Shown here piece by piece: positions 6,124 through 45,115 of a stretch of DNA of 64,000 bases; within the stretch, counting starts at the first letter, position 1, and each line of letters opens with the position of its first letter. Both the position numbers and the translations under genes were made by a program. The notes under the pieces were generated by a model. That model had not been told where the DNA came from, made no database searches, and worked only from the letters and a program-made list of their open reading frames with translations. The stretch is from the NCBI GenBank assembly GCA_046293175.1, contig JBKBPM010000001.1, positions 511,847 through 575,846 of the forward strand, written 5' to 3'. Source of the DNA: Minisyncoccia bacterium. Lineage in GTDB: Bacteria; Patescibacteriota; Minisyncoccia; Phycocordibacterales; UBA918.

Positions 6124-8472
6124 ATGAGTACCCTCGTCATCGTAGAGTCACCAGCCAAAGCCAAAACCATTGAAAAGTACCTTGGCAAAGGCTATACCGT
6201 CATGTCCTCCATTGGGCACGTGCGGGATTTGCCAAAGACAAACAAAGACGCCGTTGATATTGAGGCGGGTTTTGTGCCGCGCTACATCATTTCGCCCGGT
6301 AAAGAAAAGGTTATTGCCGACCTCCAAAAAGCGGCCAAAAGTGCCGATCTCGTTCTCCTCGCGTCCGACCCGGACCGCGAAGGAGAAGCTATTGCTTGGC
6401 ACATAGCCGAACTCATTAAAGGAGCAAACAAAAATCTTAAACGTGTCGTCTTTCACGAAATTACCGAAGACGCCGTGAAAGAAGCTATCACGCATCCTCG
6501 CGCCATTGATGAAAATCTCAAGGAAGCGCAAGAAGCCCGTCGTGTACTTGATCGTCTCGTTGGTTACGACCTCTCAGGGCTTATTTGGAAAAAAGTGCGT
6601 TACGGTCTTTCGGCTGGTCGTGTGCAATCACCGGCCTTGCGTATCATCATGGAGCGTGAGCGCGAAATCAGAGCCTTTGTACCTGAAGATTTCTTTGTAC
6701 TCACAACCACAGCCAAAGCGGGCAATACGGTGTTGCCACTCACCTGTACTATCGAGCCAAGCGAAAAAGCTGAAGCCGATCGTATCAAAAAAGTCGGTGA
6801 AAAAGGTACCTGGGTCGTAACCGACCTCAAAGAAACCGAGGCGCGTCGCGCACCTCGTGCACCGTTTACCACCTCAACCATCCAGCAAGCCGCTTCAACC
6901 CGACTTGGATTTTCGCCATCTCGCACTATGGGAGCGGCACAAAAACTCTACGAAGCGGGACACATTACTTACATGCGTACGGACAGTACAACCTTGAGTG
7001 TGGTAGCGCAAAAGCAAATCATCGCCCACATTAGTGCCGAGTACGGCAAAGACTACCTCGCACCACGTCAGTACAAGACCAAGAGTAAGTCAGCCCAAGA
7101 AGCCCACGAAGCAATTCGTCCGACAAATATTGCCGTGAAGAGCGCTGGTCTTACTCAAGACCAAAAGGCACTCTACGAACTCATCTGGCGGCGGACCGTG
7201 AGTTCACAAATGAGTGATGCGCTATTTGCCCGCACAAAGGTTGTCGCAAACATTGCCGGTAAAGAGACGATTCCAGACTTCGCTGTCACCGGTGCTCGCA
7301 TCACCTTTGATGGTTGGCTTAAGGTGGACACCGCCTCACGTGGTGAAGATGTCGAAGTCCCAAAACTAGGTATCGGCACCGAGCTAACGGTAAAAGAAAT
7401 CGCTGTTGAAGCCAAACAAACCCAACCGCCCAACCGCTACACGGAAGCTGGTCTCATTAAGGAACTTGAAAAGCGTGGTATTGGCCGGCCATCAACCTAT
7501 GCCAGTATCATGAACACTATCACCGAACGTGGGTATGTCACCAAAGAAGGTCGTACGCTTATTCCGACCGATACGGGAGATGTGGTTTCAACGTTTCTTG
7601 AGCAGTACTTTGGTGAGTATATTAGTGATACCTTCACGAGTGAGATGGAGGACGAACTTGATGAAATCGCCGAAGGCAAGCGCACTTACGAAAAGACGCT
7701 TAAGGATTTCTATACCCAGTTTAGCAAAGACGTGGCCGCTAAAGAAGATATCCCAAAGCTCACGAATCTCGGCGCTGGTCCAAAACAATTCCCTTGCCCT
7801 ACCTGCGGTGCTGGCATGGTAATAAAGCTCGGCCGTTCGGGAACCTTCCTCTCGTGCGAACGCTACCCAGACTGTGAAGGCGCTCGCCTCATAGATGGCA
7901 ATGAACTGAAGGCCGAAGCGCCAATTGGCAAGCACCCCGAGACTGGAGAGGATATCTATGTACTTAATGGTAAATACGGACCGTATGTCCAGCTTGGTGC
8001 CACCCCAGAAAAGGTAAAGGGCAAAAAAACGGTGACACCAAAGCGCGCGAGTCTCCCGGCTGGTGTGAAGATGGAAGATGTGACGCTCGAGATGGCAACC
8101 AAGTATCTCATCTTACCCCGCGAACTCGGCACCCATCCTGACACCGGGGAACCTGTGATAGCCAACACTGGACAGTATGGTCCGTACATTGCCCACGCAG
8201 GTGATTTCCGTTCCCTTAAGGGTAACGATGATCCGTACACCATTACCTTCAAGCGCGCACTTGAGATATTGAAAGAACCAAAGCCGGGCCGCAAGGGCGA
8301 AACCATCCTCAAACAAATTGGCATCCATCCTCGCACTCGCAAACTCATCAACCTCTACGAATCAAAATCAGGACGCTACTTTCGCAAGGGTTTCAAACGT
8401 ATCAGTATTCCAGACAACATGAAGACGGAGGATATCACCCTTGAGGTGGCTCTTGAGTTACTAAAGCAATAG
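6124..8472 (+). CDS. topA: DNA topoisomerase I
   Basis: 782 aa. Toprim domain (STLVIVESPAKAKTIEKYLG), active-site Tyr region, C-terminal Zn-ribbon (CPTCGAGM...CERYPDC). Confidence 0.95.
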   Translation: MSTLVIVESPAKAKTIEKYLGKGYTVMSSIGHVRDLPKTNKDAVDIEAGFVPRYIISPGKEKVIADLQKAAKSADLVLLASDPDREGEAIAWHIAELIKGANKNLKRVVFHEITEDAVKEAITHPRAIDENLKEAQEARRVLDRLVGYDLSGLIWKKVRYGLSAGRVQSPALRIIMEREREIRAFVPEDFFVLTTTAKAGNTVLPLTCTIEPSEKAEADRIKKVGEKGTWVVTDLKETEARRAPRAPFTTSTIQQAASTRLGFSPSRTMGAAQKLYEAGHITYMRTDSTTLSVVAQKQIIAHISAEYGKDYLAPRQYKTKSKSAQEAHEAIRPTNIAVKSAGLTQDQKALYELIWRRTVSSQMSDALFARTKVVANIAGKETIPDFAVTGARITFDGWLKVDTASRGEDVEVPKLGIGTELTVKEIAVEAKQTQPPNRYTEAGLIKELEKRGIGRPSTYASIMNTITERGYVTKEGRTLIPTDTGDVVSTFLEQYFGEYISDTFTSEMEDELDEIAEGKRTYEKTLKDFYTQFSKDVAAKEDIPKLTNLGAGPKQFPCPTCGAGMVIKLGRSGTFLSCERYPDCEGARLIDGNELKAEAPIGKHPETGEDIYVLNGKYGPYVQLGATPEKVKGKKTVTPKRASLPAGVKMEDVTLEMATKYLILPRELGTHPDTGEPVIANTGQYGPYIAHAGDFRSLKGNDDPYTITFKRALEILKEPKPGRKGETILKQIGIHPRTRKLINLYESKSGRYFRKGFKRISIPDNMKTEDITLEVALELLKQ

Positions 8473-12404: not shown

Positions 12405-12439
12405 CAATGAATCCCTGTTTAGGGGTTTTGTGTCTCGGA

Positions 12440-12575
12440 GAACATGACTAGATCTCATGTTCATGAGTGGGTCGAAGAGGTTGCCAGCTATTTTTGAGTT
12501 TAGCGAAAAAATAACGACAACCTGTACCGATTCTGTAAGAATCAAGTCCCCCCTCCGGCACCATAGCAAATACAA
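12440..12575 (+). repeat. tRNA-associated structured repeat, copy G (downstream of tRNA-Leu-CAA)
   Basis: gaagaggttgccagctatttttgag...gacaacctgtaccgattctgtaagaatcaagtcccccctccggcacca. Homologous to the copies at 17935, 27423(-), 51522 and 58037(-). Stems covary between copies (ggttgcc/gacaacc here, ccttgcc/gacaagg in copy A). It ends in a diverged copy of the tRNA-Leu 3' end. Flanked by 22-nt hairpin direct repeats at 12408-12430 and 12575-12598. Confidence 0.6.
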
Positions 12576-17850: not shown

Positions 17851-17895
17851 CACCAAAAAAACAGCTCAGGCAAATGCCTGGGCGATTTTTATTGT

Positions 17896-18029
17896 GTGCC
17901 GGGAAGTAAAGTGTGTGGGACACACTTTACGCGGGATTCGAAGACCTTGCCTGCTATTTTGTGAGGTACGAAACAAAATAGTGACAAGGTGTACTGAAGC
18001 TGTAAGCTTCGAATCCCTCCCGGCGCACA
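17896..18029 (+). repeat. tRNA-associated structured repeat, copy A, with a perfect 24-nt duplicate of the tRNA-Tyr 3' end
   Basis: Hairpin gtaaagtgtgt-ggga-cacactttac, then the core gattcgaagaccttgcctgctattttgtgaggtacgaaacaaaatagtgacaaggtgtactgaagctgtaagc, then gcttcgaatccctcccggcgcaca (18006-18029). The last segment matches tRNA-Tyr 17829-17852 at 22/24 positions. Confidence 0.65.
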
Positions 18030-18094
18030 ACAACTGATTAGAATGCAATGTATTTGGATCATTACCTATTCCATCGACACTGTTCGATACTCGA

Positions 18095-27422: not shown

Positions 27423-27515
27423 GAAACCAAAGGCGGGATTCGAACTTTACAAGTTCAGTACATGTTGTCGCTCTTTTACAGAAAAGAGCTGGCAACCTTT
27501 TCGAATCCCTTGTCA
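27423..27515 (-). repeat. tRNA-associated structured repeat, copy E (downstream of tRNA-Cys), ending in a diverged copy of the tRNA-Cys 3' end
   Basis: Minus-strand read: aaggttgccagctcttttctgtaaaagagcgacaacatgtactgaacttgtaaagttcgaatcccgcctttggtttca. The plus-strand tgaaaccaaaggcgggattcgaac matches tgagaccgaggcgggattcgaac (the tRNA-Cys 3' end) at 21/24 positions. Confidence 0.6.
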
Positions 27516-27550
27516 AAATAAAACACCCTCAATCGGGTACTTTATTATTG

Positions 27551-27716: not shown

Positions 27717-28211
27717 ATGGCAAAAAAACGTACCTGGACAGAAGCCCAATTAAGACAAGCAGTACATGATTCAAAGAGTATTCGCCAAGTTCTCATTATT
27801 TTGGGACTTATCCCTGCTGGAGGCAACTACCAACACGTTGGACAAACTATAAAAAAGCTTGGGATAGATGACTCACATTTTACAGGTATGGGTTGGCGAA
27901 GTGGACGAACTTTTGATTTTGTCCCTCAGCGAACACTTGAATCTATTCTTCAAAAAAACTCCGATTTTCAAAGTTTCAAATTAAAAAAACGGTTATTTCG
28001 CGAAGGTTTAAAACAACCAAAGTGCGAAATGTGCGGCTGGGCAGAAATATCAAATGATGGTAGGATTCCAGTCGAGCTCGACCACATCAATGGAGATCAC
28101 CGTGATAATCGGCTAGAGAATCTGAGAATTCTATGCCCCAATTGTCACAGTCTTCAACCAACACATCGGGGTCGAAATCAAAAGAAACCGCCGGGGTGGC
28201 GAAATCGGTAG
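27717..28211 (+). CDS. HNH endonuclease
   Basis: 164 aa. HNH motif CEMCGWAE...ELDHINGDHRDNRLENLRILCPNCH. The gene is AT-rich and its last 22 nt overlap the 5' end of tRNA-Leu(TAA). Confidence 0.75.
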   Translation: MAKKRTWTEAQLRQAVHDSKSIRQVLIILGLIPAGGNYQHVGQTIKKLGIDDSHFTGMGWRSGRTFDFVPQRTLESILQKNSDFQSFKLKKRLFREGLKQPKCEMCGWAEISNDGRIPVELDHINGDHRDNRLENLRILCPNCHSLQPTHRGRNQKKPPGWRNR

Positions 28212-28276
28212 ACGCGCAACACTTAAAATGTTGTGAGCGAAAGCTCTTATGGGTTCAAGTCCCATTCCCGGCACCA
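28190..28276 (+). tRNA. tRNA-Leu(TAA), CCA encoded
   Basis: Acceptor GCCGGGG/TCCCGGC, anticodon stem CAACA/TGTTG with loop CTTAAAA, long variable arm, T-arm ATGGG-TTCAAGT-CCCAT, A73, CCA. Confidence 0.85.
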
Positions 28277-28278
28277 TA

Positions 28279-28316
28279 ACAAAACACTCCATGGATATGG
28301 AGTGTTTTGTTATTTT
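28279..28316. terminator. perfect hairpin terminator (copy 1 of a duplicated terminator)
   Basis: aacaaaacactccat-ggat-atggagtgttttgtt followed by attttct. The arms are identical to the hairpin at 29094-29126. Confidence 0.7.
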
Positions 28317-28331
28317 CTAAACCAATCATTG

Positions 28332-28413
28332 TGCCCAGGAGAGGACTTGAACCTCCATGAGTCACCTCGCTTGCTCCTAAGGCAAGTGCGTCTACCAATT
28401 TCGCCACCTGGGC
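28332..28413 (-). tRNA. tRNA-Leu(TAG)
   Basis: Acceptor GCCCAGG/CCTGGGC, anticodon stem CTTGC/GCAAG with loop CTTAGGA, long variable arm, T-loop TTCAAGT, A73. Confidence 0.85.
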
Positions 28414-28678: not shown

Positions 28679-29095
28679 ATGACCACCCCAGCATTCGCCT
28701 TCGGTGACGGGATCACTCCTCCTACCCCTTTTGTCCTCCTCGAACAGATTATTGAAGATCGCGGCAGTCGCTATAGCGTGAGCTACGGCCACGTACAGAG
28801 TCGCGAGGATATCAAAACCTTTCTCAAAACCCTCAAAAAAGACAAGGCCTATATGCGCGCCGATCACAACAGCTTCGCTGCTCGTATCGAACACGAAGGA
28901 GTGATCTATGAAACCAAAAACGATGATGGTGAGACTGGCGCCGGGATGGTGATTCTCCGCATGCTCCAAAAACACGATGTCAGATGCGGGGTCGTCTGTG
29001 TAACCCGCTGGTTCGGTGGCATCAAGCTGATGGGTGACCGGTTTAAACATATCCAAGACGCCACCATCATCGCTATCAACCACATGCAGTCATAA
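28679..29095 (+). CDS. YigZ/IMPACT-family (UPF0029) N-domain protein
   Basis: 138 aa from the internal Met. GSRYSVSYGHV...DDGETGAGMVILRML...VVCVTRWFGGIKLMG matches the IMPACT/YigZ core. Confidence 0.7.
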   Translation: MTTPAFAFGDGITPPTPFVLLEQIIEDRGSRYSVSYGHVQSREDIKTFLKTLKKDKAYMRADHNSFAARIEHEGVIYETKNDDGETGAGMVILRMLQKHDVRCGVVCVTRWFGGIKLMGDRFKHIQDATIIAINHMQS

Positions 29096-29130
29096 CAAAA
29101 CACTCCATCTAGATGGAGTGTTTTGTATTT
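29094..29130. terminator. perfect hairpin terminator (copy 2 of the duplicated terminator)
   Basis: aacaaaacactccat-ctag-atggagtgttttgt followed by attttgtt. Shared by yigZ-like (+) and trhO (-). Confidence 0.7.
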
Positions 29131-29135
29131 TGTTA

Positions 29136-34312: not shown

Positions 34313-34477
34313 ATGATTCTAAATACGATAAAAGAAGCGGATATGTATGCTTCATATATTATTATACACGAAAAGTAAGATTTTTAAAGGGTTTCAATCC
34401 CGGGTGTGCAAAAGTTACATGAACAACAGTAATTAATCACAAGTCTTCAAAAAAAGAACAGTAGCGAGGCGCGAAAG

Positions 34478-34585
34478 CGAAGAAATGTGAGATGTGAAGA
34501 AACACGGGGCGTTTCTGCAAGACTCATTGAGCATTTTGCGAATGAAATGATGCAAAAGGCCAATGAGTGGACAGTTTCTGTAAGA
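34478..34585 (+). repeat. structured repeat, copy C (subfamily 2, orphan; between pilin-like genes)
   Basis: gtgagatgtgaagaaacacggggcgtttctgcaagactcattgagcattttgcgaatgaaatgatgcaaaaggccaatgagtggacagtttctgtaag. About 80% identical to copy D at 41943-42030. Hairpins gaaac/gtttc, actcattg/caatgagt and ttttgc/gcaaaa. Confidence 0.6.
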
Positions 34586-34651
34586 AACTTTTGTATGATG
34601 AACGTTTCTGATGCGAACCGCAACCAAGCTAATGACTTTTTATGGAGACTT

Positions 34652-34900
34652 TTAATTGCCGGTAAGAAGAGCGAGTATCCCCCAAATCGATACCATGATA
34701 ATCATCACCACCACGGCCGTGATAGCTATTGTCGTACCCTCCTCACGCTTACTTGGATCATCAGCATGAATGACCCAGGCGTCTATCATCTTCCACAGTA
34801 CAACGAGGAAGGCAATGGCAAAGATGAAGGTGATAGCCAGATTAACAAACTCCAAAAAGAAGCTTACTAGTCCAGCGAAGTCTGTCGGGGTGGAGTCCAT
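34652..34900 (-). CDS. small two-TM membrane protein, probable TrbC/VirB2-like paralogue 6 (no signal peptide)
   Basis: 82 aa. TM1, DDPSKREEG loop, TM2. Confidence 0.4.
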   Translation of the reverse strand: MDSTPTDFAGLVSFFLEFVNLAITFIFAIAFLVVLWKMIDAWVIHADDPSKREEGTTIAITAVVVMIIMVSIWGILALLTGN

Positions 34901-39931: not shown

Positions 39932-40209
39932 AACAGAACAGCGGGTCTTTTAACGATAAATAACGGCATTAGTATAACATAAATTAGAACACATCAACTA
40001 ACCCTATCTCCGTGATTACCTGCGTCGTAATACGTTCACCGTACAATCAAGTACGCCTCGTATTATCGTTCATTGCCTTCTTAGAGTAGCTGTCCAATCA
40101 TTGGTCTATTTGCTTCGCAAAGCTCCCAAATATACACAATGAGTCTTGCGAAAAGTACCCCATACTTTTCTCAACTAGGATACAGAGTCATTTGTAGCGT
40201 TCTAAGCAA

Positions 40210-40596
40210 CTATTGTGTTGTTGTAGACGCTGAGGTGGTACCAATAAGGATAGGGGTCGGAACTGGAGTTGGTTCGGTACTGGTCGAAATCAAGGTACGA
40301 ATATCAATCATCTCTGGTGATGTGGTAGCAGGTGTAGTGGTCGGCATCGTGCTCACAATTGCGCCAGCTTGTTGGCGGAGGTTTGAAAATTGATCTCGAA
40401 AGCCCGTCCACAGACCAGCGAAGGGTTTAGTACCTTCGCTTTGGGCCAGTGCTTCGGTACTACTAAACCGTGCCGGAAGGGTAAGTGTCCAAACCCCACC
40501 AACAAGCAAGGTAAAAGAGAGTGCCGTCAAAAAAGCTACCCGCTGCCGTACGGCTTTTGGTTTTTGGCGCAAATTATCCAAAGTACGAAATAACAT
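40210..40596 (-). CDS. hypothetical membrane-anchored protein with Thr/Pro-rich C-terminus
   Basis: 128 aa. TM LTALSFTLLVGGVWTL. C-terminal TTTPATTSP... Confidence 0.4.
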   Translation of the reverse strand: MLFRTLDNLRQKPKAVRQRVAFLTALSFTLLVGGVWTLTLPARFSSTEALAQSEGTKPFAGLWTGFRDQFSNLRQQAGAIVSTMPTTTPATTSPEMIDIRTLISTSTEPTPVPTPILIGTTSASTTTQ

Positions 40597-41652: not shown

Positions 41653-41942
41653 ACAACGATCTGACCAAAGTGAGGTGAAAGACATGAAACCGCCGAAGTA
41701 AGTTCTTCATCGCAGAATCCACGAGAAGTGCTCTGGGTAACTCTGCACTGTTCTACCAAGCAGCTTGACTGCACAAGATCTCAGAAGAGATCACATGACA
41801 GGGAGGGTATGGGTATGCATCACGCTATCCTACCCGACCGCCAATCCGCCTGCGGCCGCCAGCCGTGGGTTTTTCATTGATTCAATTTTGAAGTTAATTC
41901 AAGAAACAAAGTGGTGGTGCGCGGACAGTGCCATTAGGGATA

Positions 41943-42030
41943 GTGAGAAAAGCGTGGGACGCTTTTTGCAAGACTCATTGAGTGATTTTATGAGTGCGAA
42001 CGAAATAAAATAACCAATGAGTAGACAGCC
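41943..42030 (+). repeat. structured repeat, copy D (subfamily 2, orphan; rpsA upstream region)
   Basis: gtgagaaaagcgtgggacgctttttgcaagactcattgagtgattttatgagtgcgaacgaaataaaataaccaatgagtagacagcctctgtagga. Covaries with copy C: aagcg/cgctt here versus gaaac/gtttc in C, and attttat/ataaaat here versus ttttgc/gcaaaa in C. Confidence 0.6.
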
Positions 42031-42396
42031 TCTGTAGGAGGATTGCTCGCGAAAGTTCGCCATTGTCGGCCAGAAAGGCCTCTGTGGCTCACTTTACATA
42101 TATATTGTTTTCTGGTATATTCCCCGCACCGAAAGGTATTAATAGTTTCCTAGCGACACACGTTAACCCTGAGCTTATGGGTATGGCCGGTGAATAATTC
42201 TACGAATTTTTCACTTTGCGAAATGGTAGCTCAGACGCGTGTCGTCGGAATAAATAAGTAAGCATAAGACTTACAGAATCGAGACAGATTCGCGAAGTGA
42301 CGAAATTTCAAATGAGCCGTACTTTGCGGTACGGCGAGTGCCGAAATTGATGACACGACAAAGAAGCTGGCCGATTGTGGAAGTCGCTACAGTTAT

Positions 42397-43535: not shown

Positions 43536-43587
43536 TACACTTCGGAAAATCTATCTCAAACTACCTAAAATGAAGTAAAATAGTCTC

Positions 43588-45090
43588 ATGAAGAAAATCG
43601 AGGTCTATTATGACGGCGACTGTCCGATGTGTACGGCTTTTGCAGACAATCTCAATTCATCATCAAAATCTGATACATTTGACCTCAATAATATCCACGA
43701 AAATTCTCTAGCCGGCGTTACACTTGAAGACCTATCTAAAGAAATGTATGTAAAAGATACCGATGGCACATTGTACAAAAGTGCTGATGCTATTTTAAAA
43801 GTTATTGGCACGTTTCCGAAATGGCGGTGGGTCGAAAAACTAGGTCGCTTACCAATCATCAATGGAGGTTTGCATATTGGTTACAAGCTAGTATCACAAA
43901 ATCGCTATTACCTTTTTGGTGGTATGGGTCGCCTATTTTGGCTCAAGGCTGTTCTGGCGGTAGGTTTTATTGCCGGTCTCCTCTTATCGACAAAACTTTG
44001 GTTAACCGACAGAACCTACCCACTGACACCTGTACTTTCTAACCTGCCACAACCCATTTTCCCATTTGATTATATTTTGTATGGCAGTCTAATTGTATGT
44101 TTATTTTTTACAATTTTTCATAGAAATTTCAAACGATTCTTGATTGGATCAATCGTTTTGGTGGCTTTCCTTCTTTTCCTTGATCAGTCGCGGTTGCAAC
44201 CCTGGGTCTATCAGTACACAACGATGCTACTTGTGTTAAGTGTCTTTTCTTGGCAGGTTAACGACCGCAGAAGCGTACCGTATTTACTCAATATTAGTCG
44301 CTTCGTTGTCGCTACTATTTATTTTTACAGTGGTCTACAGAAACTAAATCCTGAATTTATCGTTTTGACCTTTCCCTGGATGATGCAGCCTATAACTCAC
44401 CAACTTTCACTAACTTCGAGCGATGTCATACTGATGGGAATTACTGTCCCTATTATTGAAATGCTTATTGGACTCGCTTTACTAACTTGCCGATTTAGAA
44501 ATTACGGAATTTTCTTAGCTACTATGATGTGTCTATTTGTCCTTACTACACTTGGGCCAACTGGACATCATTGGAATACTGTCGTCTGGCCTTGGAATAT
44601 AGCTCTTCTCATCATGGTTTTTGTGCTATTTTACCGCACCCAACAATTATCATTGCTTAACTTACTAAGCATTATAAAACAGCCGCTCGGCATCACTACC
44701 ATTATTATATTTGGCATTATGCCCATGACATACTTTTTCCACATTTGGGACTCATACCCTTCTTGGTCTCTCTATTCTGGAACCACTAATCTAGCGAAAA
44801 TAGTACTGCCTGATGAAATGGTTGGTCGTCTACCTGCAGATATCCAAATGCTTATTGTTTTGTCACCAGAAGATAAAGCGACACTCTCTATATCTGATTG
44901 GTCATATCATGAATTAAAAGTTCCTCCCTATCCAGAAACACGTATTTACAATAATATTGGGCATCATTTCTGCACAAAATATGCCCCTGGCGATGTAGAT
45001 GTGTCAATTGTTATGCGAGGTAGAACGGGATGGACTCATGTTGCAGGTAAGAGTACATCCACTTGCCAACAATACTCAAAAGCACCCTAA
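43588..45090 (+). CDS. DCC-family thiol-disulfide oxidoreductase (DUF393) N-domain fused to about 380-aa polytopic membrane domain (HTTM-like?)
   Basis: 500 aa. The N-terminal YYDGDCPMC motif is typical of DUF393/DCC. At least 8 TM helices follow. The gene is markedly AT-rich (about 38% GC) compared with its neighbours. Confidence 0.5.
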   Translation: MKKIEVYYDGDCPMCTAFADNLNSSSKSDTFDLNNIHENSLAGVTLEDLSKEMYVKDTDGTLYKSADAILKVIGTFPKWRWVEKLGRLPIINGGLHIGYKLVSQNRYYLFGGMGRLFWLKAVLAVGFIAGLLLSTKLWLTDRTYPLTPVLSNLPQPIFPFDYILYGSLIVCLFFTIFHRNFKRFLIGSIVLVAFLLFLDQSRLQPWVYQYTTMLLVLSVFSWQVNDRRSVPYLLNISRFVVATIYFYSGLQKLNPEFIVLTFPWMMQPITHQLSLTSSDVILMGITVPIIEMLIGLALLTCRFRNYGIFLATMMCLFVLTTLGPTGHHWNTVVWPWNIALLIMVFVLFYRTQQLSLLNLLSIIKQPLGITTIIIFGIMPMTYFFHIWDSYPSWSLYSGTTNLAKIVLPDEMVGRLPADIQMLIVLSPEDKATLSISDWSYHELKVPPYPETRIYNNIGHHFCTKYAPGDVDVSIVMRGRTGWTHVAGKSTSTCQQYSKAP

Positions 45091-45115
45091 CATACCTGGG
45101 TGGCGGCAAATTGTT

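Follow-up and report, generated by a model that had tools for sequence, protein, structure and literature searches.

Several kinds of short structured repeats and recombination sites have been described in bacteria. Miniature elements derived from IS200/IS605, the palindrome-associated transposable elements, depend on a Y1 HUH transposase, which moves them in single-stranded form. Integron attC sites are 60-140 nt long, are recognised as folded single strands, and are inserted next to a G without target duplication. Correia and RUP elements end in inverted repeats and duplicate their target, REP units are single hairpins of 20-40 nt, and each unit of the 178-bp repeats in the E. coli tyrT operon (rtT RNA) ends with the last 19 nt of tRNA-Tyr. 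None of the mosaic intergenic repeat families is known to be enclosed by a sense and an antisense copy of a tRNA 3' end, and we know of no counterpart of such an architecture.

The window, by which we mean the whole 64-kb stretch of DNA that was analysed, contains eight copies of a structured repeat of this general kind, including the orphan copies C, D, and E. The core of the repeat is about 95-105 nt long and consists, from 5' to 3', of (G)TGAGAA, hairpin 1, TTCGCAAGAC, a long hairpin 2 with a GAG...CGAAA tip, the junction G(G/T)AC(A/T)G, and hairpin 3 with the loop CTGTAAG. The genes flanking C, D, and E encode T4SS-type pilins, gyrA, a methyltransferase, and rpsA. It is likely, with a probability that we put at about two in three, that C, D, and E were inserted in this lineage specifically, as copies of a small, mobile structured repeat that does not move autonomously, and that they have no conserved role in regulating the pilin genes, gyrA, or rpsA.

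The repeat resembles the IS200/IS605-derived elements in the absence of terminal inverted repeats and target duplications, in its asymmetric ends with hairpins near both of them, in an insertion point that may lie behind a short fixed target (a G, in most cases RGG), and in being non-coding and multi-copy, with a fold that outweighs the stem sequence. It differs from them in that no TnpA or TnpB gene was seen among the ORFs within 400 nt of the copies, in the lack of a clear strand bias, and in its three hairpins, strongly conserved loops, 3-6 nt fillers, and duplicated tRNA 3' ends. With attC sites it shares the size class, the conservation of the fold over that of the stem sequence, the lack of target duplication, and the adjoining G; however, its consensus has no R/L boxes (RYYYAAC ... 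GTTRRRY), GTGAGAA being only loosely similar, and it is not accompanied by a cassette ORF, an integron integrase, or an array beside an attI site. Like a classical MITE, it is short, non-coding, and multi-copy, and its presence or absence differs among relatives, but it is without the terminal inverted repeats and the target-site duplication of a MITE. Similarly to REP/BIME, pneumococcal BOX and RUP, Neisseria Correia, ERIC, and the Rickettsia palindromic elements, it is approximately 100-150 nt in size, structured, non-autonomous, intergenic, strain-variable, often nested or modular, and found in both orientations, although the inverted repeats and duplications of Correia and RUP are missing here as well. 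The tRNA-linked copies are similar to the tyrT repeats in being tandem-capable, in lying downstream of a tRNA, and in ending with a copy of its 3' end. In contrast to those repeats, however, there is no similarity of sequence or model, the Rfam rtT family gave no match, C and D have no tRNA end, and the family is dispersed over many tRNA species and non-tRNA sites.

Other identities were considered and rejected. The core motifs of hammerhead, twister, pistol, and hatchet ribozymes and of C/D-box or K-turn RNAs do not fit the element, and their Rfam models gave no match. Group I introns are much larger than the three-hairpin element. Those in the tRNAs of Patescibacteria are located in anticodon loops (PMC13011429). 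An identity as a group I intron was therefore rejected on both location and size.

C and D had been singled out in an earlier note made from the sequence alone, and both exist at a level far above chance. A 26-nt motif common to the two occurs twice, against 0.00 expected in shuffles, and a 21-nt version of it occurs three times, against 0.01 expected; furthermore, both copies score highly with the two covariance models (Table 1). The third occurrence of the shorter motif (minus strand, 40082-40102) belongs to copy E, an orphan that had been overlooked when the orphan set was limited to C and D. The identity of C and D is 71-72% (79 of 111 columns, or 68 of 94 on the coordinates of the note) instead of the approximately 80% previously given, and the end of D formerly placed at 42030 cuts off its final hairpin. 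Every one of the three stems listed earlier is present on folding, but those numbered 2 and 3 belong to a single long hairpin, as its base and its tip, and the hairpin that is actually the third, with the loop CTGTAAG, had been missed in both copies. As had been noted, C and D do differ by compensatory changes, which lie in hairpin 1 and at the tip of hairpin 2, and the two copies share an identical hairpin 2 base (ACTCATTG/CAATGAGT). The signature that C and D were said to share with the tRNA-linked copies holds for the architecture and for the AAGAC and TGTAA motifs, but not for GCAAGAC and AATGAGT, since the tRNA-linked copies have CGAAGAC or CGAAAAG in place of the former and are without the latter. 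The lack of a tRNA-like 3' end in C and D was borne out.

Table 1. Copies of the repeat, their parts, and associated features in the window (R1 and R2, covariance models described in the text).
Feature	Position	Strand	Details
Copy C core, three-hairpin element	34494-34593	+	R1 77.8 bits, R2 76.4 bits; fold -29.9 kcal/mol, z -2.55
C, hairpin 1	34498-34516
C, GCAAGAC linker	34517-34523
C, hairpin 2	34522-34568
C, GGACAG junction	34569-34574
C, hairpin 3	34573-34589		AGTTTC/GAAACT, loop TGTAA
Copy D core, three-hairpin element	41944-42047	+	R1 82.4 bits, R2 88.8 bits; fold -32.0 kcal/mol, z -4.71
D, hairpin 1	41948-41966		loop TGGGA
D, GCAAGAC	41968-41974
D, hairpin 2	41973-42022
D, AGACAG junction	42023-42028
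D, hairpin 3	42029-42041		CCTC/GAGG, loop TGTAG
Copy E, third orphan, C/D subtype	40071-40173	-	R1 77.8 bits, R2 78.2 bits
X51, orphan type, downstream of ftsZ, nested in U unit	51505-51606	+	R1; empty site in L004 gives boundaries of about 51503-51598
tRNA-linked copy behind tRNA-Leu(caa)	12438-12548	+	R1; continues into tRNA-like 3' end to about 12568
tRNA-linked copy behind tRNA-Tyr	17905-18015	+	R1; closing helix about 17893-18031; fold z -10.2
tRNA-linked copy behind tRNA-Cys	27437-27532	-	R1
tRNA-linked copy behind tRNA-Ser(cga)	58060-58171	-	R1; position also filled in L007, L008
Block holding C	34414-34658	+	245 nt; L002 has 10 nt there
Block holding D	41879-42092	+	214 nt; L002 has 65 unrelated nt
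Block holding E, upstream of gyrA	39982-40222	-	241 nt; L002 has about 41 nt without its N run
Terminator-like hairpin then T-run, just upstream of D block	41848-41870	+	conserved in L002, 97% over 41847-41878
rpsA promoter-like site (TTTACA, 17-nt spacer, TG-TATATT)	42093-42121	+	downstream of D; in block conserved in L002, L003, L004, L006

The family in the window was delimited with a covariance model (R1) built from the eight copies themselves, namely C, D, E, X51, and the four behind tRNA-Leu, -Tyr, -Cys, and -Ser. R1 found exactly these eight copies in the window, with E values of 1e-13 to 1e-20, the next-best match having an E value of 0.2. A second model (R2), built from metagenome copies only, recovered all eight, with E values of 1e-14 to 1e-17 for C, D, and E. 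When the eight copies were folded together by RNAalifold, three hairpins were obtained, and compensatory two-sided changes were found in 19 of the 25 pairs. Copy E is partly decayed, with the hairpin 3 loop changed to CTCTAAG, a mismatch in hairpin 2, and a fold z of only -1.08. The orphans of the window are only 69-72% identical to one another, which argues that there was no recent burst of the repeat in this genome. A scan with Rfam 15 at the gathering thresholds found 10 tRNAs only and no family on any copy, and three permissive scans over C, D, E, X51, and the Leu and Tyr copies found nothing on the elements.

The family extends well beyond the window, which comes from a Kaiserbacteria-like genome of the Patescibacteria (Paceibacteria). 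The relatives collected by rpsA are all Patescibacteria, labelled Parcubacteria, Paceibacteria, or Kaiserbacteria, and among 80 rpsA loci R1 found 16 further confident copies, in 9 of the 80. A degenerate pattern for the orphan type matched at least 120 loci in a metagenome scan, and 134 copies from the first 100 of these were aligned with R1. In this alignment 90.6% of the predicted pair cells are paired, compared with 61.8% in shuffles and 37-49% in slid controls; two-sided changes occur in 24 of the 25 pairs, and the observed values were attained by 0 of 500 shuffles. The orphan type, to which C, D, E, and X51 belong, has the consensus TGAGAA, hairpin 1, TTCGCAAGAC ... ACAG ... CTGTAAG, and the tRNA-linked type has the consensus GGATTCGAAG ... 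GTACYGA ... TGTAA ... TTCGAATCC, followed by the tRNA acceptor 3' strand. Among the matches listed, the CTCATTG stem-2 subtype, that of C, D, and E, is more frequent than any other (31 copies at 27 loci). D is 84% identical to a copy at a non-orthologous site (L008:14520). As far as sampled, the family is confined to Paceibacteria-type CPR bacteria. On viral contigs the orphan pattern had five matches, none of which was confirmed by the covariance model, and the tRNA-linked pattern had none; BLAST of D against phage and plasmid collections gave no match. A phage origin was rejected on the basis of the viral-contig scans and the BLAST search.

The loops and junctions of the aligned copies are conserved at least as much as the stems, but this is partly an effect of the search pattern, which confounds the comparison of unpaired with paired columns, so that it carries no strong weight. 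Among the mismatches, G-U outnumbers A-C by 121 to 59, or by 69 to 47 once poorly aligned outer pairs are trimmed; this excess weakly favours an RNA made from the annotated strand, though the model itself prefers G-U. X51 and its counterpart in L004 are approximately 95% identical by alignment, whereas the flanking genes are approximately 80% identical. That these copies are more alike than coding genes could reflect selection rather than transfer.

The closest syntenic relatives were compared with the window at the sites of C, D, and E. Synteny with L002 extends from the pilin genes to past rpsA, with aligned blocks mostly at 79-95% nucleotide identity, and L002 has only short or unrelated sequence in place of the blocks holding the three orphans (Table 1). 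At the site orthologous to that of E, L002 has an N run between duplicated 47 nt (7545-7652) with the look of an assembly gap, and the empty-site length there is therefore approximate. The C block is composite, with the core nested within a repeat unit that we call U; in L004 the U unit is kept and the core is replaced by a mini-hairpin alone (CCGTACTTTCTGTACGG). In a search with filters off, no copy was found at the sites orthologous to those of C, D, and E in L002, L003, L004, and L006, and R2 found none at these sites in L002. Conservation in related genomes, on which the earlier note had made its interpretation depend, is thus lacking at the locus level for all three copies, which argues that they are not cis-regulators.

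Six pairs of filled and empty sites were available for comparison (L137 and L095, L180 and L105, L026 and L028, X51 and L004, D and L120, C and L004). In L137 and L095 the flanks are 98-100% identical, and in L120 the flanks of D are contiguous, with a 7-nt gap. In all six pairs the unit that is gained or lost spans (G)TGAGAA to the end of hairpin 3; it is gained or lost whole, with fixed ends, after a G-rich flank. The empty sites hold fillers of 3-6 nt, and each polymorphism could therefore be an excision or deletion instead of an insertion. No terminal inverted repeats were found, the ends TGAGAA... and ...CTGTAAG plus stem not being complementary, and no target-site duplication was found in the six pairs. 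Among 112 distinct copies, the base before TGAGAA is G in 96% and GG stands at -2/-1 in 63%, although this G could be the element's own; the sequence before the unit is usually RGG. The first hairpin starts approximately 5 nt into the unit, and hairpin 3 closes it on the 3' side. The core also nests inside other small repeats and forms head-to-tail arrays in L088 and L107. The array units of L107 (5470-5758, minus strand) are chimeric, with a 5' half of the CTCATTG subtype, a 3' half of the CCTTG subtype, and a hairpin 2 that cannot pair, which suggests unequal crossing-over inside arrays.

Copies of the repeat accumulate behind tRNA genes. Of 158 copies, 19 lie within 120 nt downstream of a tRNA on the same strand, and 44 lie within 300 nt of any tRNA, compared with roughly 7% expected by our own estimate. 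Each tRNA-linked copy of the repeat has an antisense duplicate of the tRNA 3' end on one side and a sense duplicate on the other; these run from the T-loop to the discriminator base and pair to form a closing helix resembling an acceptor/T-arm. Such an end or helix is found in the Leu, Tyr, Cys, and Ser copies but not in C, D, and E; the Tyr copy, closed by this helix, has a very stable fold. Among the 74 tRNA genes on contigs bearing the element, 32 have their own 3' end repeated in exact inverted form (8-24 nt) no more than 200 nt downstream, compared with 2 of 74 in shuffles, although at least two of the 32, a convergent tRNA-Leu pair (28190-28413), match each other's T-arm and have no separate inverted copy. 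In many cases a terminator hairpin precedes the inverted copy, and a structured module and then a second sense copy follow it, as was seen for tRNAs of the window and in L007, L088, L092, L116, L123, L152, and L176. Other hairpin modules, including the U unit, can fill the same slot behind tRNAs. No described CPR repeat or tRNA-linked element of this kind was found in a literature search.

Duplication of this kind also affects the 3' end of ftsZ. In the window (51264-51680) the last approximately 45 nt of ftsZ recur downstream at 51380-51421, and a more degenerate duplicate lies at about 51637-51677. Between the duplicates of the ftsZ tail there are U units of 150-280 nt, each of which starts with an antisense ftsZ tail and one of which contains X51, and the duplication downstream of ftsZ is also found in L002, L004, L014, and L026. 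A small SRP RNA was considered for the U unit downstream of ftsZ and was rejected, with no support from Rfam. Further unusual features were seen at tRNA genes of the window. Upstream of tRNA-Glu(ctc) there is a pseudo-tRNA-Glu (58344-58470) whose first 25 nt and anticodon arm are exact duplicates of the real tRNA, and which is split by approximately 74 nt with a hairpin-1-like stem (GAAAAGCGGGTGGCTTTTC) and CGCGAAGAC; judging from these motifs, the insert is a degenerate fragment of the three-hairpin repeat, matched by neither R1 nor R2. ARAGORN predicted an 89-nt tRNA-Ile with the anticodon TAT and a long variable arm (54306-54394), a class II shape that is unusual for isoleucine. Beside the tRNA-Leu/Leu/Lys cluster there are two near-identical 41-nt palindromic terminator-like hairpins (CATAACAAAACACTCCAT...ATGGAGTGTTTTGTTAT), at 28275-28315 and 29091-29131, 816 nt apart.

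The possibility raised earlier, that C and D are a functional RNA module acting on their neighbours, is supported as far as a genuine structured module is concerned, whose stems covary over more than 130 copies, but not for an action on adjacent genes. It is true that D is on the same strand as rpsA, 350 nt upstream, and that E is on the same strand as gyrA, 140 nt upstream, so that a leader, an attenuator, or an sRNA acting in cis on rpsA or, for C, on the pilin-like cluster could be imagined. However, C is antisense to the pilin gene on either side, and the downstream one has its promoter-like site in the interval that separates it from C. D lies downstream of a conserved terminator-like hairpin and upstream of the conserved promoter-like site of rpsA, and for this reason it is probably outside the rpsA transcript. 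Furthermore, the element is found in dozens of unrelated contexts and in both orientations: across the family the downstream gene is on the same strand in 67 cases and on the opposite strand in 57, which is near random, the counts being approximate because of naive ORF calls. Above all, the four close syntenic relatives retain the genes and have no copy at the orthologous sites. From sequence comparison, then, the absence in relatives has already largely refuted a cis-regulatory role for C and D, which we regard as extremely unlikely, and a T-box or a ribosomal-protein leader for rpsA was rejected on the grounds of position and of this absence. In the same region, a segment of 1.6 kb (43538-45115) is missing from L002 and L004, in both of which rpsA is followed by the next gene without it; its 500-aa ORF (43588-45090) was considered as a transposase and was rejected, because it encodes a DCC1-like thiol-disulfide oxidoreductase/DoxX protein.

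A functional role that is independent of the neighbouring genes deserves more weight, although we still consider it rather unlikely. The module might be a multi-copy functional RNA, protein-binding or catalytic, whose tRNA-linked form would be cut from tRNA precursors and stabilised by the acceptor/T-arm-like closing helix, with C, D, and E as extra gene copies; this would be compatible with mobility. The strong covariation of the stems around constant TTCGCAAGAC, GTGTACAG, and CTGTAAG is consistent with such a role, as are the GAG...CGAA tip, which could form tandem G-A pairs, the excess of G-U over A-C mismatches, the very stable closed fold of the copy linked to tRNA-Tyr, the retention of the tRNA-Ser(cga) copy at its position in the window, L007, and L008, and the higher conservation of some copies between genomes than that of coding sequence. 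Against it stand the near-random orientation to neighbours, the absence of a recognisable promoter inside the unit, the coming and going of orphans among close relatives, the decay of E, the persistence of recombinant array units with broken stems in L107, and the lack of a matching Rfam family. At the other extreme, the copies could be inert scars, either what is left of integrase attachment sites or degraded tRNA duplicates that stem from integrative elements targeting the T-loop, later scattered by recombination. Integration into a tRNA gene classically leaves an exact duplicate of the 3' end of the tRNA, and the tRNA-linked copies end in just such a duplicate of approximately 22 nt starting in the T-loop; the ftsZ 3' end is duplicated likewise, and the pseudo-tRNA-Glu appears to hold a fragment of the element. 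However, three covarying hairpins would not persist over more than 130 copies of an inert scar, units are gained and lost with identical boundaries at non-tRNA sites, C, D, and E have no tRNA sequence, and no integrase recurs beside the copies, all of which makes this explanation quite improbable. A broader proposal, which we find about as doubtful as the functional RNA, is that the core is a module of an undescribed CPR system in which structured cassettes join the 3' ends of genes (many tRNAs, ftsZ), copy them in antisense and sense, and fold as an RNA capped by a tRNA minihelix; the core would then perhaps be a new class of functional RNA, for example self-processing or protein-recruiting, that also spreads alone as the orphans C, D, and E.

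We therefore favour the reading of C, D, and E as insertions of a mobile repeat. The folded strand of the element would be recognised by an enzyme of the host or of a mobile element and moved in trans, in a manner for which, by analogy, the IS200/IS605-derived elements and the attC sites may serve as models. Recognition as a folded strand would have the consequence that stems covary while loops and junctions stay constant, and C, D, and E would be by-products of the spread of the repeat. Against this reading, no autonomous parent element was found, and the divergence of the orphans within the window argues that they did not arise in a recent burst. When the ORFs within 400 nt of the copies were clustered, no mobilising enzyme could be identified and no transposase or integrase recurred; the only recurrent neighbour proteins were ftsZ and one downstream gene, at five loci each. 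Some features lean toward an RNA, namely the conserved junctions and loops, the preponderance of G-U over A-C, and the copies that are more conserved than coding sequence; conserved loops and junctions are more typical of functional RNAs than of classical MITEs, although here they are partly an effect of the search pattern. Other features, namely random orientation, the absence of an internal promoter, and the persistence of decayed and recombinant copies, lean toward an element that acts at the DNA level or is selfish.

The genomes of CPR bacteria are tiny and streamlined, and interspersed repeats are, to our knowledge, not a known feature of them. In the window, a single small structured element is present eight times within 64 kb; at least 120 metagenome contigs have it too, and its presence varies even among strains that are nearly identical. 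The repeat is thus a marker of recent genome change in uncultured lineages, and it calls for caution, in that hairpins of such a kind should not be taken for gene-specific regulators. Of possibly greater importance is the association with tRNA 3' ends: if it reflects a mechanism of targeting or processing, it would be a new way to recognise the ends of genes.
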